DNA of 43,695 nucleotides from a virus (taxonomy: Duplodnaviria; Caudoviricetes), in the IMG/VR virus record IMGVR_UViG_3300046788_000415, positions 1-43,695 of that record. The stretch is one strand, 5' to 3'. Positions 5,259 through 27,925 of the stretch are shown here, piece after piece. How positions within the stretch are numbered: the stretch's first letter is position 1; every line of letters begins with the position of its first letter. Both the position numbers and the translations under genes were made by a program. The notes beneath the pieces are model-generated. The model had not been told where the DNA came from. It did not search any database and saw nothing but the letters and a program-made list of their open reading frames with translations.

Positions 5259-6731
5259 GTGCTGCTGTCCCCCGACCAGTGGCTTGCCCGACTGATCCGG
5301 TCGCATTCTCCGCTGCTACCGCAGTTGAAGGACCTGAACGACTACTACGAGAACGACCCACCATTCTCGTACATGCATCCGGAGCTGATCCGCGAGCTTG
5401 ACGGCCGGCTGCAGCAACTGCTGCTGAACTGGTCGGCGCTGGTCGTCGACACGGTCGAAGAACGCGCCGACCTCGAAGGTTTCCGGCTGGCGAACGCGGG
5501 CACGGCCGACAAGGACCTGTGGTCCATCTGGCAGGCCAACGACCTCGACGAGGCCAGCTCGCAGGCCCACGTCGACTCCCTGGTCTTCGGCAGGTCGTTC
5601 GCGATCGTCGGTGCCCCGGACGAGCCGGGTGATGAGCCGATCATCACGGTGGAGTCGCCGCTCGAGGTGCACGCCGAGTGGGATCCGCGTACCCGCGAGG
5701 TCGTGGCCGCGTACAAGACATGGTCGGAGGAGCTCGGCGACGGCTCGAAGGTCGAGCACGCCACGCTGTATCTGCCCGACGCGACGTCGTGGTGGGTGAA
5801 GCGGGCCGACGCCTGGGACATCGACGGCGAGTATCCGCCGGACGAGCACGGCCTGGGCATGGTTCCGGTCGTGCCGATCGTGAACCGTCCTCGCATCTCC
5901 CGATCGCGTAAGGGCTTCGGCGGGCCGGCCGGCGCGTCGGAGATGCAGGGTGTCATCCCGGTGGTCAACGCGGTCAACAAGATCGCTACGGACATGATGA
6001 TCTCGGCCGAGTTCCACGCGATGCCTCGCCGCTGGGCGCTCGGCTTCGGCCCGGAGGACTTCCAGGACGAGAACGGCAATGTCGTGTCGACCTGGTCGAA
6101 GATCGCCGGCCGGATCTGGGCGTCGGAGAAGACCGCCACCGACGGGGCGGCCATCGGCCAGTTCCCTGAGGCGCAGCTGTCCAACTTCCACGACACGGTC
6201 AAGTTGCTCGCGACGATGACCGCGGCCCTCTACGGCCTTCCGGCGACGTACATGGGTCTCGCCTTCGACAACCCGCCGTCCGCTGACGGCATCCGCTCGC
6301 TGGAGGCCCGGCTGATCAAGCGGGCCGAACGGAAGCTGCGGGCCTGGGGCGGCTCGTGGGAATGCGTGATGCGCCTTGCCGACCGGATCACCACCGGCGT
6401 CGAGCGCGAGGAATTGGAGCAGCTGGAGACGCAGTGGGCGGACCCGGCGACACCGACGATCGCACAGAAGGCCGACGCCGCGGTGAAGCTATTCACGGCG
6501 GGGATCACGACCAAGCGGCAGGCGCGGGAGGATCTCGGCTACTCCGCCGAGCAGCAGGCCCGGATGTTGCAGGACGAGACCGACGAGGCGAACCAGACCG
6601 CGAGCCTGTTCAAGCTGCCCACGGCCGCCGAGCAGCAGGGTCGGCCAGTCGCTGCGCCGACACCGATGCCGGGCATGCCGATGCCGGGCATGCCGCCGAA
6701 GCCCGGCGACGTCAATGCTCCTGCCGCCTGA
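5259..6731 (+). CDS. Portal protein (SPP1 gp6-like)
   Basis: NWSALVVD, IWQANDLD, FHAMPRRW, PPSADGIR, WADPATPT motifs; follows TerL. Confidence 0.93.
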   Translation: MLLSPDQWLARLIRSHSPLLPQLKDLNDYYENDPPFSYMHPELIRELDGRLQQLLLNWSALVVDTVEERADLEGFRLANAGTADKDLWSIWQANDLDEASSQAHVDSLVFGRSFAIVGAPDEPGDEPIITVESPLEVHAEWDPRTREVVAAYKTWSEELGDGSKVEHATLYLPDATSWWVKRADAWDIDGEYPPDEHGLGMVPVVPIVNRPRISRSRKGFGGPAGASEMQGVIPVVNAVNKIATDMMISAEFHAMPRRWALGFGPEDFQDENGNVVSTWSKIAGRIWASEKTATDGAAIGQFPEAQLSNFHDTVKLLATMTAALYGLPATYMGLAFDNPPSADGIRSLEARLIKRAERKLRAWGGSWECVMRLADRITTGVEREELEQLETQWADPATPTIAQKADAAVKLFTAGITTKRQAREDLGYSAEQQARMLQDETDEANQTASLFKLPTAAEQQGRPVAAPTPMPGMPMPGMPPKPGDVNAPAA

Positions 6732-7713
6732 TCTGCTCGACCTCGCCCGCCTGCATCGTGTCCGTCAGCAGGAACTCGCCCGCCGAGCCTCGGCGCTGGC
6801 CGGCCAGCTGTGGACGACCGTCGACCCGTCAGCCGCCGCCGCGTCGTGGCAGGGCCAGCCAGGGCCGGCCGCTGTCCGTGCGGTGACTCTCGCTCAGGTC
6901 GCCGCCGCGCAGGGCGCCGACGACTACGTGGCCGCGGCGCTCGCACACCAGAACGTCTCGGGCACCGCCGACGGGCAGACCTCAACCCAGGCGCTGTCCG
7001 GAGTCGCCTCCGACGGCCGGCCCCTCGATTCGCTGCTCGAGCAGCCCGCGCTTGAGGTCGACACGCTTACCGCCGGCGGCATGGACCCGTCGGCCGCCCA
7101 GGTGATCGGCGGCGCACACCTGGCCCGGATCATCGCCACGCAGATCGCTGACGCGGCCCGGGTTGCCACCGGTGTGGCAACTGTGGGACACCGCGGCGCG
7201 CACGGCTACATCCGGATGCTGTCGGCGCCGAGCTGCTCCCGGTGTGTCGTGTTGGCCGGCAAGTTCTACAAGACCAACCAGGGTTTCCGCCGGCATCCGT
7301 TGTGCGACTGCGTGCACATCCCGGCCGCCGAGAATCTGCACAGCGCACTGACCTCACCGCGCGCCTACTTCGACTCGCTCGATCCGGCCGAGCAGAACCG
7401 GGTCTTCACGACCGCTGGCGCCCAGGCGATCCGGGACGGCGCCGACGTCGGCCAGGTCGTCAATGCCCGTCGCGGAGCCGCCGGCCTGTCGACGGCGGGC
7501 GCTCGGGTTTCCGCCGAGGAGGCTGCCCGGCTACGCGCCGGCCGAAAGATCGGCCGGCTGCAACGGGTCGACGTCTTCGGTCAGAAGGTGTTCGTCACCC
7601 GCACCGGTGCGACCCGCGGGAAGCCCCGGCTGATGCCGGAGTCGATCTACGAGATCGCCAAGGACCGCGCGGAAGCCGTCCGGCTGCTGCGCCTGCACGG
7701 ATACATCCTCTGA
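6715..7713 (+). CDS. MuF-like minor head / capsid morphogenesis protein
   Basis: CSRCVVLAG...FRRHPLCDC motif; between portal and scaffold. Confidence 0.8.
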   Translation: MLLPPDLLDLARLHRVRQQELARRASALAGQLWTTVDPSAAAASWQGQPGPAAVRAVTLAQVAAAQGADDYVAAALAHQNVSGTADGQTSTQALSGVASDGRPLDSLLEQPALEVDTLTAGGMDPSAAQVIGGAHLARIIATQIADAARVATGVATVGHRGAHGYIRMLSAPSCSRCVVLAGKFYKTNQGFRRHPLCDCVHIPAAENLHSALTSPRAYFDSLDPAEQNRVFTTAGAQAIRDGADVGQVVNARRGAAGLSTAGARVSAEEAARLRAGRKIGRLQRVDVFGQKVFVTRTGATRGKPRLMPESIYEIAKDRAEAVRLLRLHGYIL

Positions 7714-7757
7714 CCTGGCGCGATGCCGGGTCATTTGCACGAGAGGTCGCGATGACC
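7711..7757 (+). promoter_or_regulatory. Two GCGAT-loop hairpins before the scaffold gene; the second contains its start codon
   Basis: TGACCTGGC-GCGAT-GCCGGGTCA (one G-U pair) and GGTC-GCGAT-GACC with ATG 7752. Confidence 0.6.
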
Positions 7758-8348
7758 GACAAGTACACCTGGTTCACCCTGAGCCGGCACAACGAGCCGG
7801 ACCCGCCCGCCGATCCGCCGACGGATCCACCTGTCGATCCTCCCGCCGATCCGCTCGGTGACGCGGGCAAGAAGGCGTTGCAGGAGGAGCGGGCGGCACG
7901 AAAGGCGGCCGAGAAGGCCCTGGCTGAGCGCGATGCGAAGCTGCGGGAGTTCGAGGACCGCGACAAGACCGAGACCGAGAAGCAGGTAGCGGCCCGCGAG
8001 GCTGCGGAGAAGCGTGCGGTCACCGCGACCGCCCGCGCGGTCCGGGCCGAGGTGAAGGCCGCGGCCGGCGAGTTCGCCGACCCGACCGACGCCGTGGCGC
8101 TGCTCGGTGACCTGTCGAAGTACGCCACCGGCGACGACATCGACGCCGACGCCATCACCGCGGACCTGACCGCCCTGCTGGAGCAGAAGCCGCACCTGCG
8201 CAAGGCGGCCGTGCGTACCGGCCCACGCCCGGATCCGTCGCAGGGTGGCGGACGCGAGGGTGGGCCGACGGACTTCAAGACCGCCGACTCCGCGGCCTTC
8301 GCCGCCGAGCTCGCCAAGTACGGCCTCCGACCGCAGTCCTACTCGTGA
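7752..8348 (+). CDS. Capsid scaffolding protein
   Basis: SD GAGAGG; DPPx repeats, LGDAGKKALQEER, coiled coil, KPHL; N-terminal WFTLSRH. Confidence 0.88.
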   Translation: MTDKYTWFTLSRHNEPDPPADPPTDPPVDPPADPLGDAGKKALQEERAARKAAEKALAERDAKLREFEDRDKTETEKQVAAREAAEKRAVTATARAVRAEVKAAAGEFADPTDAVALLGDLSKYATGDDIDADAITADLTALLEQKPHLRKAAVRTGPRPDPSQGGGREGGPTDFKTADSAAFAAELAKYGLRPQSYS

Positions 8349-8533
8349 TCCGAATCCGCGCCCGCCTGGGCGACGGAAGTACCTCGATCGAGGTCGACGG
8401 ACACGAGCGGCATATCGAGCAGGGGCGCATCTGCGCCGCCGTCTCGGCCATCACCCAGACCGCCCTGCTCGGCCTCCAGCAGATCGCCGAACAGCATCCG
8501 GACATCGTGTCCATCGAGATCACGGAGAAGTAG
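8345..8533 (+). CDS. prp: Prp-family (DUF464) cysteine protease, 62-aa minimal form
   Basis: MIRI...IEVDGH...ICAAVSAITQTALLGLQQIAEQHPDIVSI keeps the catalytic GH and CAAVSA motifs and the Prp C-terminal pattern. Confidence 0.8.
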   Translation: MIRIRARLGDGSTSIEVDGHERHIEQGRICAAVSAITQTALLGLQQIAEQHPDIVSIEITEK

Positions 8534-9850
8534 ATGACCCTGTCGACCCGCGCCCGCTGGTTCCGGCTCGATCGCCACGACGTGCGGTCGACGCTGCCGG
8601 CCGCCATCCAGGCGATCATGCAGAACGGCATCCTGGACCGCACCTTCCGCGACGCCCTCATCCCGCAGTTCCTGTTCCCCGCGATCGCCGACAGCGAGCC
8701 GTGGCAGGGCGGTCTGGGTGACACCCGGACCTTCACCCGCAAGGGCCTGATCGCCCCGACCACGACCCCGCTCGCGGGTGCCGACATTGCCGGCGCTTCG
8801 ACGTACACGGTCGAGCAGTGGTCGGTCGTGATGGACCAGTACGGCATCAGCGTGGACACGAACATGCTGCAGTCGGCGATGACCCTGGCCAGCAAGTTCC
8901 TTGCGGACGTGCAGACCCTCGGCATCAACGCCGGCCAGTCGCTGAACCGGATCGCCCGCGCGAAGATGTACAACGCGTACATGGGCGGCCGGACCTGGGC
9001 CACCGCGGCGGCCAGCACTGACACGACCATCGCTGTGCAGGAGGTCGCCGGCTTCACCAAGGTCCTCGTCAACGGCGTGCCCACGGCGGTGTCCGCCGGC
9101 AACCCGCTGAACGTCACGATCAACGGTGTGGCCAACACGGTCACCGGCACGTCCGTCCAGTCCGGTCCGGGCAACCTGACCCTGGGCACCACCCGTGTGG
9201 ACGTCGTCGGTGACCCGGTCATTTCGTCCAACGCGCCGACCTCGATCCGGCCCGGCGTCTCGCCGGCCGCGACCGCCTACCAGCTCACCGCGGGTACCGA
9301 CGTGGCCACCCTGGCCACGTTCCGGGCGGCCGTCATCCGGCTGCGGAAGATGAACGTCCCCACCATGGGCGGCTACTACACGGCGCACATCCCGCCGGAC
9401 ACCGAGGCCGAACTGTTCGCCGACGCCGACTTCAAGCAGGCGCTGCAGGGACGGGTGGACTCGCCGATCTGGCGGGACCTGTCGATCGGCCGGTTCTCCG
9501 GCATCGACTGGGTCCGCAACATCGAATGCCCGACGGTGCTGGGCACCTCGACGCAGGCCGTCACCGTGTTCCGGCCCATCGTGGTCGGCGCCGGCTCGGT
9601 CGTCGCGGCACCGTTCGACGGTGTCGGCAGCCTGCTCGCCGGTACCGGCGTAGAGGACGTCCCGTCGGTCCGGATGATCCCGGCCGCGCCGTCCACGGAG
9701 GTCGCGCTGATCGTCCGCCCGCCGCAGGACCGTCTCCAGCAGGTCATCTCCACCTCCTGGTCGTACACCGGCGACTTCGGTGTGCCGTCCGACTCCGGCA
9801 CCGGCGACACCGCGCTGTTCAAGCGTGCCGTCGTCATCGAACACATCTAG
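8534..9850 (+). CDS. Major capsid protein
   Basis: 438 aa after scaffold; LRKMNVP...YTAHIPP...IGRFSGIDWV HK97-fold pattern; N-terminal WFRLDRH. Confidence 0.88.
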   Translation: MTLSTRARWFRLDRHDVRSTLPAAIQAIMQNGILDRTFRDALIPQFLFPAIADSEPWQGGLGDTRTFTRKGLIAPTTTPLAGADIAGASTYTVEQWSVVMDQYGISVDTNMLQSAMTLASKFLADVQTLGINAGQSLNRIARAKMYNAYMGGRTWATAAASTDTTIAVQEVAGFTKVLVNGVPTAVSAGNPLNVTINGVANTVTGTSVQSGPGNLTLGTTRVDVVGDPVISSNAPTSIRPGVSPAATAYQLTAGTDVATLATFRAAVIRLRKMNVPTMGGYYTAHIPPDTEAELFADADFKQALQGRVDSPIWRDLSIGRFSGIDWVRNIECPTVLGTSTQAVTVFRPIVVGAGSVVAAPFDGVGSLLAGTGVEDVPSVRMIPAAPSTEVALIVRPPQDRLQQVISTSWSYTGDFGVPSDSGTGDTALFKRAVVIEHI

Positions 9851-10847: not shown

Positions 10848-11318
10848 ATGTCCCTGACCGAATATGCCGTGCCGACTGGCGCGGCTGTCGCGCTGACGGC
10901 GGCGACCGCGAAGACCACGCTGGCGGTGATCGCGCCTGCCACATTCGGCGTGGATCTGCGCCGGTTCTCCATCTCGTTCGACGGTGTGACGGCGTCGGCC
11001 ATTCCGGTGCTGTGGGAGCTCTGCTACAGCACATTCGCCACGAACTCGACGCCCGGCACGAACAACACGACCGCCACCGTGACTCAGACCGCGGGCCGGG
11101 TCATCACGCCTGGGTTCACCGGTTTCTATGCGAGCACGGTAGAGCCGACGGTGCTCACCGTGCTCGAATCGGACACGTTGACCCCGAACGGTGGTCTGCT
11201 GATCCGGGACTTCGGGGCGAACGGCCCGGACTCGGCGGTTTCCAATGGGTTCGTGCTGCGGCTGACCGCCCCGGCTGCGGTCAACGCCCGGGCCAGCTTC
11301 TATCTCGGTCGCTGCTGA
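10848..11318 (+). CDS. Putative virion structural protein
   Basis: Thr/Ala/Gly-rich, predicted beta-rich, in morphogenesis operon; SD AGGAG. Confidence 0.65.
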   Translation: MSLTEYAVPTGAAVALTAATAKTTLAVIAPATFGVDLRRFSISFDGVTASAIPVLWELCYSTFATNSTPGTNNTTATVTQTAGRVITPGFTGFYASTVEPTVLTVLESDTLTPNGGLLIRDFGANGPDSAVSNGFVLRLTAPAAVNARASFYLGRC

Positions 11319-11608
11319 TGGCGGTGCTCGGCAGCGACAAGGTGCGCCTGCTGTACAGCGAGGGCTTCGCCCTGCACATCGCGCTGTACGCCGTGGTCGG
11401 TGCGACGACCGGTGACACCGTCGATCTGGCCGGTGATTTCGCGGTGGTCAAGCAGGCCGTGATCCAGGGTGCGACGGTCGTCGGGCAGGGCGTCGTGTCG
11501 ACCATTTCCGGCACGGTCGTCACCCTGCCTTCGGGGATCGGCGGCACGACCCCGGACGGCCTCCACATGCTCGTTCAGGGCGAGGCCGGAGTCAGGTTCC
11601 AGGGCTGA
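11318..11608 (+). CDS. Putative virion structural protein
   Basis: TGATG coupling; predicted beta-rich. Confidence 0.65.
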   Translation: MAVLGSDKVRLLYSEGFALHIALYAVVGATTGDTVDLAGDFAVVKQAVIQGATVVGQGVVSTISGTVVTLPSGIGGTTPDGLHMLVQGEAGVRFQG

Positions 11609-11609
11609 G

Positions 11610-12632
11610 ATGGCCGACAGCAGCGCACCGATCAGCGGCGGCGGCCAGGCCGACACCCGCACCGTCGCGGGCGGCGACCACCGGCAGGTCGTGGTGCTCG
11701 GTGACCCGGTCACCAACGCGAACGTCGCGACGGTCTTCGCGGGCGGGCAGCTGCGGGTCGCGCTTGATGCGACGCAGCTGTTCATCGACACGTTCGACGC
11801 GGGCCTGGACACGGTCAACCGGTGGAATACGCCGCTGACCGGCGGCACCGGCATCGCGGCGACCTCGACGGTCGGCGCGACCGTGCTGGACGGCGGGACG
11901 ACGAACGGATCGTTCTCGGTGCTGGAGTCGCGGCCGAGCTTCATTCCGGACGAGCCCGGCTGGGACCTCGTCCAGATGCGGCTCAACATCGAATTCCCGG
12001 TCGTCACCACCGCACACCGGTTCTGGGGTCTGGGCACCACGCCCGGCTCCCCGACCACGGCCGCGCCGCTGACGAACGCTGTCGGGTGGGAGATCCGCAC
12101 CGACGGCATCCTGTATGCGGTGACGTTCGCGTCGGGCTCCCGGAACTTCTCGGCGTCGCTGAGCTCGGTCCAGCCGACCGACTCGTCCGCGCACAAGTAC
12201 TACCTGTACGTGCGCGGTGACCTGTGTTTCTGGGCGATCGACTCCCTCGACAACGTGGTCGCGAGCTTCACCACCGGCGCATCCGGCCCGGACGTCAACA
12301 CGCTGCCGATGAAGGTCCAGGTGGCCTCTGCGGGCGGTACGCACGCCACGATCCAGCTCAACGGCTGCTCGGTCGGCGATACGGCCCGCAACAACAACAC
12401 CCTGTCCGACCCGGTCTATCCGTGGCGGCAGGCCACCGTCAGCAGCGCGGGCGCGTTGAACGTCGCCCAGCAGGGCGCGGTCGCAGTCACAGGCATCACC
12501 AGCGTCCAGGGCGCCGTGCTCGTGGCCGACGACTACGGCGCGCAGATCCTGCTCGAGCTGCGCCGGATGAACACGTACCTCGCCTATCTGACCCAAGAAC
12601 GCGTCAGCGACGCCGACATCCTGGAGCTGTAA
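11610..12632 (+). CDS. Putative fibre/decoration protein with beta-sandwich domain
   Basis: ATG 11610; FIDTFD...NRW...FWGLG...AVGWE; C-terminal ILLELRRMNTYL helix. Confidence 0.6.
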   Translation: MADSSAPISGGGQADTRTVAGGDHRQVVVLGDPVTNANVATVFAGGQLRVALDATQLFIDTFDAGLDTVNRWNTPLTGGTGIAATSTVGATVLDGGTTNGSFSVLESRPSFIPDEPGWDLVQMRLNIEFPVVTTAHRFWGLGTTPGSPTTAAPLTNAVGWEIRTDGILYAVTFASGSRNFSASLSSVQPTDSSAHKYYLYVRGDLCFWAIDSLDNVVASFTTGASGPDVNTLPMKVQVASAGGTHATIQLNGCSVGDTARNNNTLSDPVYPWRQATVSSAGALNVAQQGAVAVTGITSVQGAVLVADDYGAQILLELRRMNTYLAYLTQERVSDADILEL

Positions 12633-13240
12633 TGCCCGCATCCACGTACCTGACCGTCGGCCCGCAGACCGGCACGGACGGCGCGGTCGTCGCAACCCGA
12701 GCCGGCCGCACCGGCGAAGCGATCGTCACCGAGCTGAACGCCCGCTACGCGGAGCAGGTCATCCGCGGCACCACGTTCCTGGCCGCGAACACCGCCGCGC
12801 AGGCCGTCAGCGTCGCGCTGGCGACCACGTACACGGGCCTGTGCCTGTCGAACGCGACCGGCTCCGGCAAGAACTTCGTCCTCATCGAGGCGTCGTTCGG
12901 CCTGACGGTCGCGCCGGCCGGTATTGCCTCGATCCACCTCATCGGCGGCTCGTCGACGACCGCGGTCACGCACACCACCCCGATTACGCCGACCTGCGCG
13001 CTGCTGGGTTCCTCCAACACGTCCGCCGCGAAGGTGGACTCGGCGGCGACCATCCCGACCCCGATCTACCTGGACACGCTGATGGGCGGCTTCACCGCCG
13101 CCGCCCTGCCCGCCTCACCGTCGACCACGTTCGACATCGCCGGGCGCATCGTGCTGGCCCCAGGCGGCTTCATCGCGATCGGTGCGCTGACCGCGGCCAC
13201 CGGCATCGGCTCGATGACCTGGGTCGAGGTCCCCGTCTAA
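12632..13240 (+). CDS. Putative virion structural protein
   Basis: TAATG coupling; LSNATGSGKN and terminal TWVEVPV patterns typical of phage structural proteins. Confidence 0.65.
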   Translation: MPASTYLTVGPQTGTDGAVVATRAGRTGEAIVTELNARYAEQVIRGTTFLAANTAAQAVSVALATTYTGLCLSNATGSGKNFVLIEASFGLTVAPAGIASIHLIGGSSTTAVTHTTPITPTCALLGSSNTSAAKVDSAATIPTPIYLDTLMGGFTAAALPASPSTTFDIAGRIVLAPGGFIAIGALTAATGIGSMTWVEVPV

Positions 13241-13292
13241 CCCGTCCGGTCCGGCCGCAGAGATAGGGGCGTCGCACAGATAGGGGCACGCG

Positions 13293-15218
13293 GTGAGCCT
13301 GCTCCTGCTCTTCCAGTCCCAGGCCACCGGTTCCGGCCGCGGCCCGCTGGTCGTCACCGCCGCGGGAACAGCTGCCGCACCGGCCGCCATCGTCCTGCGC
13401 ACGCCGCAGTCCACCGCACCCGCCGTCCCACCGTCGCTGCGCGCCCTGGGCACGGTGGTCGCGACCACCACGAGCACCCCGAGCTTCTCGGCGCCCGCGG
13501 GCACGCAGGCGACCGACGTCGTCCTCGCGCTGTCGTTCATCGACGCTGGCACGACCACGGTCACCGCCGTGCCGACCGGGTTCACGGTCATCCCGAACCT
13601 GCCGCAGGACTCCAATCCCTCAGCCCCGGCGACGGACCATTCGCTGATCGGCTACTGGGGCCGGTTCTCCGACATCGGCGCCGGACCGTACACGTTCACC
13701 CTCTCCGCGAGCGTGTTCGTCGAGGGCCGCACCGCCGCGATCCAGGACTGCATCACCACCGGCAGCCCGTGGGAAGCCACCTCCGGCAACACGTCCGGGC
13801 CGGCCTCGTCCGTCACGACCGCCCCGGCCGTGTCCGCGACCTCGCTCGGCACCAACCGGTACGCGTTCTACGCGGCCACCAACTGGACCGGCGGCGCCTG
13901 GACCCCGGCGTCGGGTTTCGTCGAGCAGTGGGACGCCAACGACGAAGTCATCACCTTCGACGACAAATCGCTGCCGACCGCCCAGACGGTCAGCCCGCAG
14001 GCCGTCTGCGCCGGCTCAGCGCGGTCGAACGCGTGGGTCGGCATCCTGCTCCCGGCATCCGGCGCTGCGACATCGTCAGCAACCCCGACCCCGCTGGTCG
14101 TCACCCCATCCACGCCTCCGCCGGCCGCGCAGGCGATCCTGAGCCGTAATCCCGCCGCACCGGCTGCCGCACCGGCACCGGCGGGAATCCAGCCGTACGT
14201 CATCACCACGTCGGCGGTCGCCGGGACGCCGCAGGCGATCGTGGCGCGCGGCAGCCTGGTCGATCTGGCCACCCCGCGGCCCTACGTCGTCACGGCGTCG
14301 GGCTCGGTCCCGGTCGCTACCTCGATCGTTGTCCGTTCGACGTTCGTCGACCCGCCGGTCCTGACGACGCCGCAGCCCTACGTGGTCACCGGGCCGGCCC
14401 CGGTCGCCCCTGTGCCGCTGTCGGTCACCGGCCGGTCGAGTCTCGCGGACGCCGTGGTCGTGGTGGCCCCGACGCCGAACCCGGTCGTCGTCACCATCCC
14501 CACCCCGAGCGTTCCGGCCGTGGTCATCACGCTCCGGTCGACGCTCGCCGACCCACCCGTACTCACCACGCCGGCCCCGTATCTCGCAGCCGGCCCCGCC
14601 CCGGTGTCCGGCCCCGCGGCGGTCCTGTTCAGTCGTAACCTGGCCGCTCCCGTGGTCGTCCCGGCCACGACCAGCGCGCAACCGTACGTGGTCACCTCGG
14701 CCGGACCGGTCCCGCTGGCTCTCGCCATCGTCGGCCGCAGTACCCTGGCCGACCCGCCCGTCCTGACTACCCCGCCGCCGTTGGTGGTCACCAGCATCGC
14801 GCCGGTCCCGGCTGCCCTGGTGGTCTCCAGCCGGACGCCGGCCGCCGACATCTTCACCGCAGGCCGTCAGCCGGTCACCGCGACCGGCCCGGCCACCGCG
14901 ACCGGCCCGGCCACCGCGGTTCGGTCGCTGGCGGTGATCGTCCGGGCGCCGGTCGCCGCCGCAGTGTTCGTCCCGCAGTCGACCCGGCCGTACGTCGTCC
15001 TCGCCCAGCCGCCACCACTAGCGACGCTGGTGCTCACGTCGCGGGCGCCGGCCATCTGCGACTGCCAGACCCACCGGCCGAGCACCGGCATCACCGCAAG
15101 GCCCATGACGGGTATCACCGCCCGCCCCGGCGCTGGCACGACGACCCGCCCGGCCGGCGGCACGACGACCCGCCCGAACGCGGGTATCACCACCCGGCCG
15201 TGCACCTGCCAGCAGTGA
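13293..15218 (+). CDS. Pro/Thr/Val-rich repeat protein (putative neck or head fibre)
   Basis: Globular N-terminal domain, about ten P[YL]VVT...RS[TS]LADP repeats, C-terminal TxRPxxG repeats bracketed by CxC. Confidence 0.7.
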   Translation: MSLLLLFQSQATGSGRGPLVVTAAGTAAAPAAIVLRTPQSTAPAVPPSLRALGTVVATTTSTPSFSAPAGTQATDVVLALSFIDAGTTTVTAVPTGFTVIPNLPQDSNPSAPATDHSLIGYWGRFSDIGAGPYTFTLSASVFVEGRTAAIQDCITTGSPWEATSGNTSGPASSVTTAPAVSATSLGTNRYAFYAATNWTGGAWTPASGFVEQWDANDEVITFDDKSLPTAQTVSPQAVCAGSARSNAWVGILLPASGAATSSATPTPLVVTPSTPPPAAQAILSRNPAAPAAAPAPAGIQPYVITTSAVAGTPQAIVARGSLVDLATPRPYVVTASGSVPVATSIVVRSTFVDPPVLTTPQPYVVTGPAPVAPVPLSVTGRSSLADAVVVVAPTPNPVVVTIPTPSVPAVVITLRSTLADPPVLTTPAPYLAAGPAPVSGPAAVLFSRNLAAPVVVPATTSAQPYVVTSAGPVPLALAIVGRSTLADPPVLTTPPPLVVTSIAPVPAALVVSSRTPAADIFTAGRQPVTATGPATATGPATAVRSLAVIVRAPVAAAVFVPQSTRPYVVLAQPPPLATLVLTSRAPAICDCQTHRPSTGITARPMTGITARPGAGTTTRPAGGTTTRPNAGITTRPCTCQQ

Positions 15219-27157: not shown

Positions 27158-27925
27158 ATGACCAAGCTCAAGCGCAGCCTGACGCTGGCCGTCGCGCTGC
27201 TGACCGCCGCCGTCGGTATCGGCCTAGCGGCCGGTCCGGCCAGCGCCAGCACGGTGTTCTTCTACTACGCCAAGGCGAGCCAGGCGATCACCAACACCGG
27301 CATGTTCGCGAACCTGTCCATCGCCGCGCCGAGCGTGGCGTCCGGCGACTTCCATTCGCTGACCGAGCTGGCCGTGGAGTCGGCCGACACGCATCAGATC
27401 GTCGAGGTCGGCTGGACCGTCGACCCGGGCCAGTACGCCGGGAACAACCCGAGCTCGCCGCACCTGTTCGCCGCGACCTGGACGAACGGCGTGTTCAACG
27501 GCTACGGCACCGGGTTCGTCGACATCGGCTCCAATCCGATCAACCTCGGTGCGACCCTGACCGCCGGCACGGCCAAGTCGTTCGGCGTCCAGTACGGCGG
27601 GACCCCGGCGGGCTGGGCGGTCTACTACGACGGCACCCAGGTCGGCTACTTCCCGGCCACGATGTGGTCCAGCCCGACGTTCGCCACGGCGGGCTTCGAC
27701 CAGGCCTTCACCGAGGTCGCCGCGAACGTCTCCGCGACGTGCACCGACGCGGGCAACGGTCTGATCAGTACCAACACGGGCGCCGACGTCATCGGCTCCG
27801 TGCAGTACATCGGCCAGCCGACCTCGGCGGTCTCGATGGCGACCGGGGCGACGAACGCCACCTACTACTCGATCACCGCGCTGAGCGCGCGGACCTTCCG
27901 TGTCGGCGGGCCTGGCGCCTGCTGA
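27158..27925 (+). CDS. Secreted neprosin-family (DUF239) peptidase-like protein
   Basis: Sec signal ending PASA; HSLTELAVES...IVEVGWTVDP, PHLF, W(AV)YYDG..VGYFP, second Glu in FTEV. Confidence 0.7.
   Translation: MTKLKRSLTLAVALLTAAVGIGLAAGPASASTVFFYYAKASQAITNTGMFANLSIAAPSVASGDFHSLTELAVESADTHQIVEVGWTVDPGQYAGNNPSSPHLFAATWTNGVFNGYGTGFVDIGSNPINLGATLTAGTAKSFGVQYGGTPAGWAVYYDGTQVGYFPATMWSSPTFATAGFDQAFTEVAANVSATCTDAGNGLISTNTGADVIGSVQYIGQPTSAVSMATGATNATYYSITALSARTFRVGGPGAC

Follow-up and report, generated by a model that had tools for sequence, protein, structure and literature searches.

The locus analysed here raises the question of whether a 62-residue relative of the cysteine protease Prp, encoded between the scaffold and capsid genes of a phage, could remove the N-terminal leaders of both neighbouring proteins without help from the host. 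Our reading is that this phage-encoded, half-size Prp (hereafter half-Prp) probably oligomerises and trims both leaders after a conserved His, independently of the host. The window, that is, the whole 43,695 nt stretch under analysis, is an entire virus record (IMGVR_UViG_3300046788_000415) with direct terminal repeats, a CheckV completeness of 100%, and a GC content of 67-73%. It encodes a terminase, an SPP1-type portal, a scaffold, a capsid, a tail tube, a tape measure, and an integrase-family gene. Because genome-borne relatives of the half-Prp gene (41 loci) sit in Streptomyces, Nonomuraea, Kitasatospora, Micromonosporaceae, Glycomyces, and other actinomycetes, the window phage is likely a phage of an actinomycete.

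The three genes of interest are adjacent and lie on the + strand. The head scaffolding protein (198 aa; 7752..8348) matched phrog_4708 (head scaffolding, E 3e-20) and, slightly below the cut-off, PF06810 (E 4.5e-8). Its stop overlaps by 4 nt with the half-Prp ORF (8345..8533; GTG start), which abuts the capsid ATG with zero gap; the translational coupling noted in a preliminary description of this DNA thus takes a different form on each side. The major capsid protein (438 aa; 8534..9850) matched phrog_1357 (major head, E 7e-22) and TIGR04387 (E 1e-9, below the cut-off), and is 55% identical to gp7 of Streptomyces phage Kromp (MH744420). Two regions elsewhere in the window were also recorded. 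An extra gene block (10848..15218, + strand) lies between the head-tail adaptor and the next connector genes, where Kromp has no such block; a 641-aa Pro/Ala/Thr/Val-rich ORF inside it had no Pfam or PHROG match. After the lysis region, a 255-aa ORF (27158..27925, + strand) with a signal-like N-terminus matched Neprosin (PF03080; 43 bits, cut-off 22) and probably encodes a secreted peptidase-like protein.

The scaffold and capsid begin with leaders that end in the same word, WFxLxRH. In the scaffold it reads WFTLSRH (aa 7-13, 7770..7790), at the end of a 13-residue leader (7752..7790, + strand); in the capsid it reads WFRLDRH (aa 9-15, 8558..8578), at the end of a 15-residue leader (8534..8578, + strand). 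These positions, first pointed out in the preliminary description, held on inspection, as did its remark that the two proteins are otherwise unrelated: their best BLASTP match was the tag itself (E 0.19). Across all six frames of the window, WFxLxRH occurs exactly twice against 0.005 occurrences expected. Of 3000 shuffled 24-residue pairs, 21 shared a 5-of-7 match, as did 4 of 3000 internal-window pairs, and a chance origin was rejected. The same six-frame search found no third tagged protein, and further tagged substrates in the window were rejected.

Comparison across loci suggests that the two tags drift in coordination. At P7, Trp was present in both proteins in 91 cases and in neither in 14, with 6 discordant; as the rows share ancestry and three scaffold rows are out of register, no p-value is drawn from this count. 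One locus (L018) has Phe at P1 in scaffold and capsid alike, and another (L033) carries the same divergent tag on both proteins beside a 40%-identical enzyme (L033:2667-2864), the most divergent half-Prp of the clade. Separately, three capsids (L068, L114, and L116) carry a longer leader with two tandem copies of the tag.

We then considered what the middle gene encodes. Its product matched PF04327 at 31.6 bits (cut-off 27) over profile positions 1-58 of 90, and this was the sole Prp match in the whole record. The family assignment made earlier therefore stands; what had been overlooked is the half length, which makes the described Prp fold impossible for a single chain. The published Prp monomer (PMC9405229) comprises two helices and five strands in ~100 aa (106 aa in S. 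aureus Prp), whereas the window protein has 62 aa and one helix. An AlphaFold2 model (pLDDT 95) contained two strands and one 23-residue helix, and its C-terminal segment was unpaired. It counts against activity that about 45 residues of the family fold are missing, among them the Gly65 region, which in S. aureus Prp helps to order the active-site loop (PMC9405229).

The short form is a property of the family. A homologue search restricted to 34-109 aa returned 383 matches, and the 120 listed were 61-72 aa long. We collected 210 distinct members, partly with patterns that contain the Cys, and all measured 61-72 aa, with 165 of exactly 62 aa. Since this length is fixed and the scaffold occupies the frame upstream, we rejected the idea that a missed start or a frameshift hides a longer Prp, within the 34-109 aa that the search covered. 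The gene might instead be a decayed remnant of a full Prp beside tags that are kept for another reason, such as scaffold-capsid contact; its half length and its scores far below the cut-off of all NCBIfam Prp models would fit. We regard this as very improbable: 209 of the 210 members fall within 61-66 aa, the gene evolves under purifying selection (dN/dS median 0.28, range 0.15-0.64, 82 pairs), no tagged capsid with a visible upstream region lacked the gene (see below), and the same deletion architecture was seen in 44 of the best 150 of 652 cluster representatives, alongside 101 full-length two-stretch matches (second stretch from profile position ~34) and 5 unclassified.

The predicted catalytic residues are retained. 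The Cys (Cys30, 8432-8434) was present in 210/210 distinct members, including those gathered by patterns that contain it, and Ser or Thr followed four residues later (Ser34 in the window) in 208/208 scored. Gly19, His20 (8402-8404), and Cys30 were invariant among 88 aligned members, so that the His-Cys dyad, the Gly, and the Ser at C+4 that typify Prp are all in place.

Sequence and structure comparisons point to how a half-length form could have arisen. The best PDB sequence matches were Prp structures, aligned in two stretches corresponding to helix 1 and helix 2 (E 0.0085 and 0.03). Against solved Prps, the N-terminal part of the half-Prp profile aligned with the first helix and the C-terminal part with the second helix and last strand; the single helix of half-Prp thus starts like Prp helix 1 and ends like Prp helix 2. 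Both helices of full-length Prps carry a similar Thr-x-x-Leu-Gly-Leu word, so a deletion between these internal repeats would explain the short form, and we infer such an origin; that half-Prp is instead an ancestral half-unit is an alternative that we keep in view. Structure searches gave weak results in the PDB, where Foldseek returned no match at E <=0.001 for the half-Prp monomer (the Prp entry 7KLD ranked 25th, E 5.5), and supportive ones in BFVD, where a 61-aa protein that bears the name Prp came first (E 1.6e-3, TM 0.73) and a 120-aa YsxB-like protein matched at TMq 0.62.

Gene and tag were found to go together. Among capsid-seeded viral loci, 52/61 had both gene and leader (in one, L009, the gene is out of frame just before the His); of the other nine, eight had neither and one was cut off. 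Metagenome loci, several of which duplicate viral contigs, had both in 17/30, neither in 7, and were cut off in 6. After pooling capsid- and Prp-seeded loci, the tag was found in 129/129 distinct capsids beside the gene (127 by pattern and 2 variants by eye) and in 0/73 without it (5 of the 73 with <400 nt upstream). Five records whose capsids lack the leader, including two complete or near-complete ones, gave no PF04327 match. Tagged capsids in genomes without a Prp would have told against the proposal, and none appeared wherever the sequence extended far enough upstream. Half-Prp accompanied 85 of 118 motif-seeded loci; another 16 were scaffold starts on loci that end short of the gene, 15 lay in frames with no relation to scaffold or capsid, and the remaining 2 were left out of account. 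Tagged scaffolds or capsids lacking the gene were accordingly rejected wherever the DNA extended far enough. In a quick tree of 34 hand-picked capsids, the 20 tagged ones formed a single branch (support 98) next to leaderless ones, so the co-occurrence represents one gain and not many independent events. In L312, half-Prp occurs with a distantly related capsid of this family, 24% identical (E 4e-24), and the leaders are L27-type; this is possibly a second half-Prp/leader pairing, and the placement of L312 in the tree is unsure (long branch).

Where would the leaders be cut? Conservation in 111 distinct loci is concentrated at P1, P2 Arg, P4 Leu, P6 Phe, and P7 Trp, with P3 and P5 free. P1 was His in 110/111 capsids; in scaffolds it was His in 103 and Phe in 8. 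In leaderless capsid homologues, the initial Met aligns with Asp16, directly after the tag His; these homologues are 53-55% identical in L049 and L055, and 36-39% identical in phages of Ralstonia and Komagataeibacter. Together, the exchange of His and Phe at P1 and the starts of the leaderless capsids fix the register after His. A precedent for His at P1 comes from pneumococcal phage Cp-1, whose protease removes 48 residues of the head protein (PMC12445089); residue 48 is His (record Z47794), which places the cut after His. Cleavage after His, as proposed in the preliminary description, is thus the most likely outcome, after His13 in the scaffold and His15 in the capsid, and the predicted mature proteins would start at Asn14 and Asp16, respectively.

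One feature of the site counts against this cleavage. Prp is described as size-limited at P1', where a small residue is needed (PMC9261936), whereas P1' here is mostly large or acidic: Asp in 75/111 capsids and 92/111 scaffolds, and overall mostly Asp, Glu, Asn, or Ala. The leaders could then be cut at another bond, for instance after Arg, or by another enzyme, either a host protease or the product of the upstream gene. This 332-aa, VG15-like head gene (6715..7713, + strand; PF25310 E 4e-5, below the cut-off) matches PHROG 1522 (phrog_1522), labelled 'head maturation protease' (E 1e-69), and its counterpart Kromp gp4 is likewise annotated as a capsid maturation protease. A back-up protease for L27 is also described in S. 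pneumoniae (bioRxiv 2025.08.01.668195). We consider this alternative decidedly unlikely in view of the register set by P1 and the leaderless starts, and of the upstream protein itself. Its invariant residues are a Cys-x2-Cys followed later by a His and a Cys, its model (pLDDT 85) is mostly helical, and a PDB search returned no match of any kind, proteases included. HK97-type prohead proteases are beta-barrels. We tentatively take the product to be a MuF-like minor head protein, and on the evidence of its model it is probably not a protease despite the database label. The earlier statement that no HK97/ClpP-type prohead protease was found needs amending to this extent: a second candidate exists by label.

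Returning to cleavage after His by half-Prp, we examined how far the tag departs from known Prp signals. The usual Prp substrate motif, (D/N)LQ(F/L)F with a small residue after it, was not found in the window. The tag keeps Leu at P4, Phe at P6, and an aromatic P1 but lacks Gln at P3 and the small P1'. S. aureus Prp is described as burying substrate P1, P2, P4, and P6 (PMC9261936), and these are positions conserved here. In Firmicutes-type half-Prp phages, several tags read W-x-F-x-(L/I/M)-Q-R-F (for example WxFxLQRF) followed by Asn or Ser. As the positions that Prp reads are conserved, Phe can replace His at P1, and such intermediates exist, the tag is best seen as a drifted L27-type signal. 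The earlier description of the signal as apparently new needs this qualification: WFxLxRH is not unrelated to the L27 motif. In the same Firmicutes-type phages (L299-L314), half-Prp genes accompany LQ(R/L/M)F-type leaders with non-Ala P1' on several different capsid families. A locus scan with an alignment of short-loop half-Prps yielded no usable pattern. Three half-Prp genes (L304:6010-6210, L315:6007-6195, and L316:3397-3585) lie outside head modules with no tagged neighbour seen; their neighbours resemble ribonucleotide reductase and dUTPase (labels by eye).

A second feature counts against protease activity as such. The equivalent of Asp31, three residues before the Cys and loop-stabilising in Prp, is Gly in 204/208 members, and loss of Asp31 is described as inactivating S. 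aureus Prp (PMC9405229). Given this loss and only half a fold, half-Prp might bind the leaders as a folding or assembly chaperone and not cut them, or cut too slowly to matter. Such a role has been proposed for Prp (PMC9405229), and for 80alpha the scaffold leader is described as required for assembly while its cleavage is not, with a common chaperone proposed (PMC5744158). We think this unlikely. His20 and Cys30 stay invariant despite variation in the binding loop, and Cp-1 gp13, whose loop is also divergent, is described as a proven phage protease (PMC12445089). Moreover, the lost Asp is the residue that binds the P3 Gln (PMC9405229), and that Gln is likewise missing from window-type tags; Firmicutes-type half-Prps, which share the short Cys-to-Pro spacing (21), kept the Asp in 17/17 examined, beside Gln-containing tags in the loci read. 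Enzyme Asp and P3 Gln thus appear both to have been lost in the actinomycete branch. On account of its fold, the missing Asp31, and the divergent motif, we place the protein outside the canonical C108 peptidases, as a half-size variant derived from Prp.

For cleavage by half-Prp, the single chain would have to be complemented. In S. aureus Prp, substrate P4 and P6 are described as lying at the dimer interface (PMC9405229), and for this reason it would take four short chains to restore the substrate site. We envisage that 62-residue chains self-assemble into an active protease. A pair of them would make up the equivalent of a single Prp-like monomer, and a set of four that of the dimer which binds substrate; its interface pockets would hold the tag residues Phe (P6) and Leu (P4), as they do in the S. 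aureus complex. Both leaders would be removed after His during head assembly, without host help. The more specific version of this model, in which the complete protease subunit is a 62-residue half-domain Prp forming a homo-oligomer (probably tetrameric, which would raise the number of symmetric active sites from two to four) and specificity has been rewired to His at P1 and an acidic P1', we hold tentatively, at somewhat short of an even chance. Complex predictions with four half-Prp chains and capsid residues 1-32 scored 0.41, 0.08, and 0.12 against a mark of 0.32, evidence neither way.

Could a host Prp do the cutting instead? In 5/5 actinomycete genomes with the module, the prophage gene was the only PF04327 match, and L27 in 5/5 actinomycete hosts of relatives was short, starting directly at the mature sequence. 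Phylum-wide, 301 genomes gave two PF04327 matches at E 0.001, and the one above the cut-off was the prophage gene of the centre genome. A host Prp as the cutting enzyme was rejected for the host genomes sampled. The window record contained no L27 gene, and half-Prp lies in a phage head module, not between rplU and rpmA of a long-L27 host like a cellular Prp. Collectively, the absence of any other Prp or long L27 from these hosts supports a phage-encoded Prp-like enzyme that would need no host Prp.

The arrangement may be of practical use. What Prp cleavage contributes to head assembly is said to be unclear, and is hard to test in staphylococci because host Prp is essential (PMC5744158, PMC9405229). 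Here, the enzyme and both substrates are encoded by three adjacent phage genes in a Prp-free host group, and Kromp is in culture, with a titre of 2x10^10 PFU/mL given on S. coelicolor M145 (bioRxiv 2025.09.03.674096), so the gene should be cleanly deletable or mutable. If our reading is right, a half-length, self-assembling Prp would reveal how an internal repeat makes up the fold, and it could serve as a very small protease for removing tags, with a site of 7 residues. Should the 62-residue chain be a complete protease subunit, it would rank with the smallest known proteases and would allow a phage lineage to take leader-dependent head assembly into hosts without Prp.

How does the module compare with known systems? 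Full-length phage Prps with L27-type leaders are common, and databases already name half-Prp proteins Prp. Wall 2015 may contain a list of phage Prps. In a literature search that had most subscription papers outside its reach, we found no paper on a half-length Prp, the WFxLxRH tag, or the Kromp module. The Prps of Firmicutes temperate phages likewise lie in the head module, with the same leader on scaffold and capsid, but are full length (Cys-to-Pro ~48-66 versus 21-22), use an LQ(L/F)FA-type, L27-like tag, and often also tag the tail tube. At some loci (L345, L353, L359, L362, L363, L365-L367, L370, L373, L375, and L376), a full-length phage Prp is in one frame with a long downstream protein in the scaffold position, with an L27-type site at the junction; this is likely a self-processing polyprotein.

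S. aureus Prp (YsxB; PF04327, MEROPS C108, clan CR, PDB 4PEO and 7KLD) acts on L27 and on the capsid and scaffold of phage 80alpha (PMC9405229, PMC9261936, PMC5744158). It shares with the window system the Gly-His...Cys-x3-Ser pattern, a common tag on scaffold and capsid, hydrophobic P4 and P6, and an aromatic P1. The window enzyme differs in being phage-encoded, 62 aa long and not ~106, and without Asp31, in hosts without a long L27, and its tag has Arg at P2, a free P3, His at P1, and a mostly acidic P1'. Cp-1 gp13 (clan CR) is a phage-encoded Prp-family enzyme acting in head-protein maturation, with His at P1. In the window, too, a phage gene of the Prp family, with predicted activity, is paired with a leader on the head protein that has an aromatic residue at its end. 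Unlike half-Prp, gp13 is full length (104 aa) and its gene does not lie between scaffold and capsid; the site lacks WFxLxRH, the scaffold has no such tag, and Cp-1 is a podovirus of a host with its own Prp. On balance, half-Prp quite probably works like Prp and Cp-1 gp13. The closest counterpart is gp5-gp6-gp7 of Kromp; a search of 50,697 phage records found no other member. Its gp6, annotated only as 'protease', is 74% identical to the window half-Prp, both neighbours of gp6 are tagged, and the module shows no difference in kind from that of the window.
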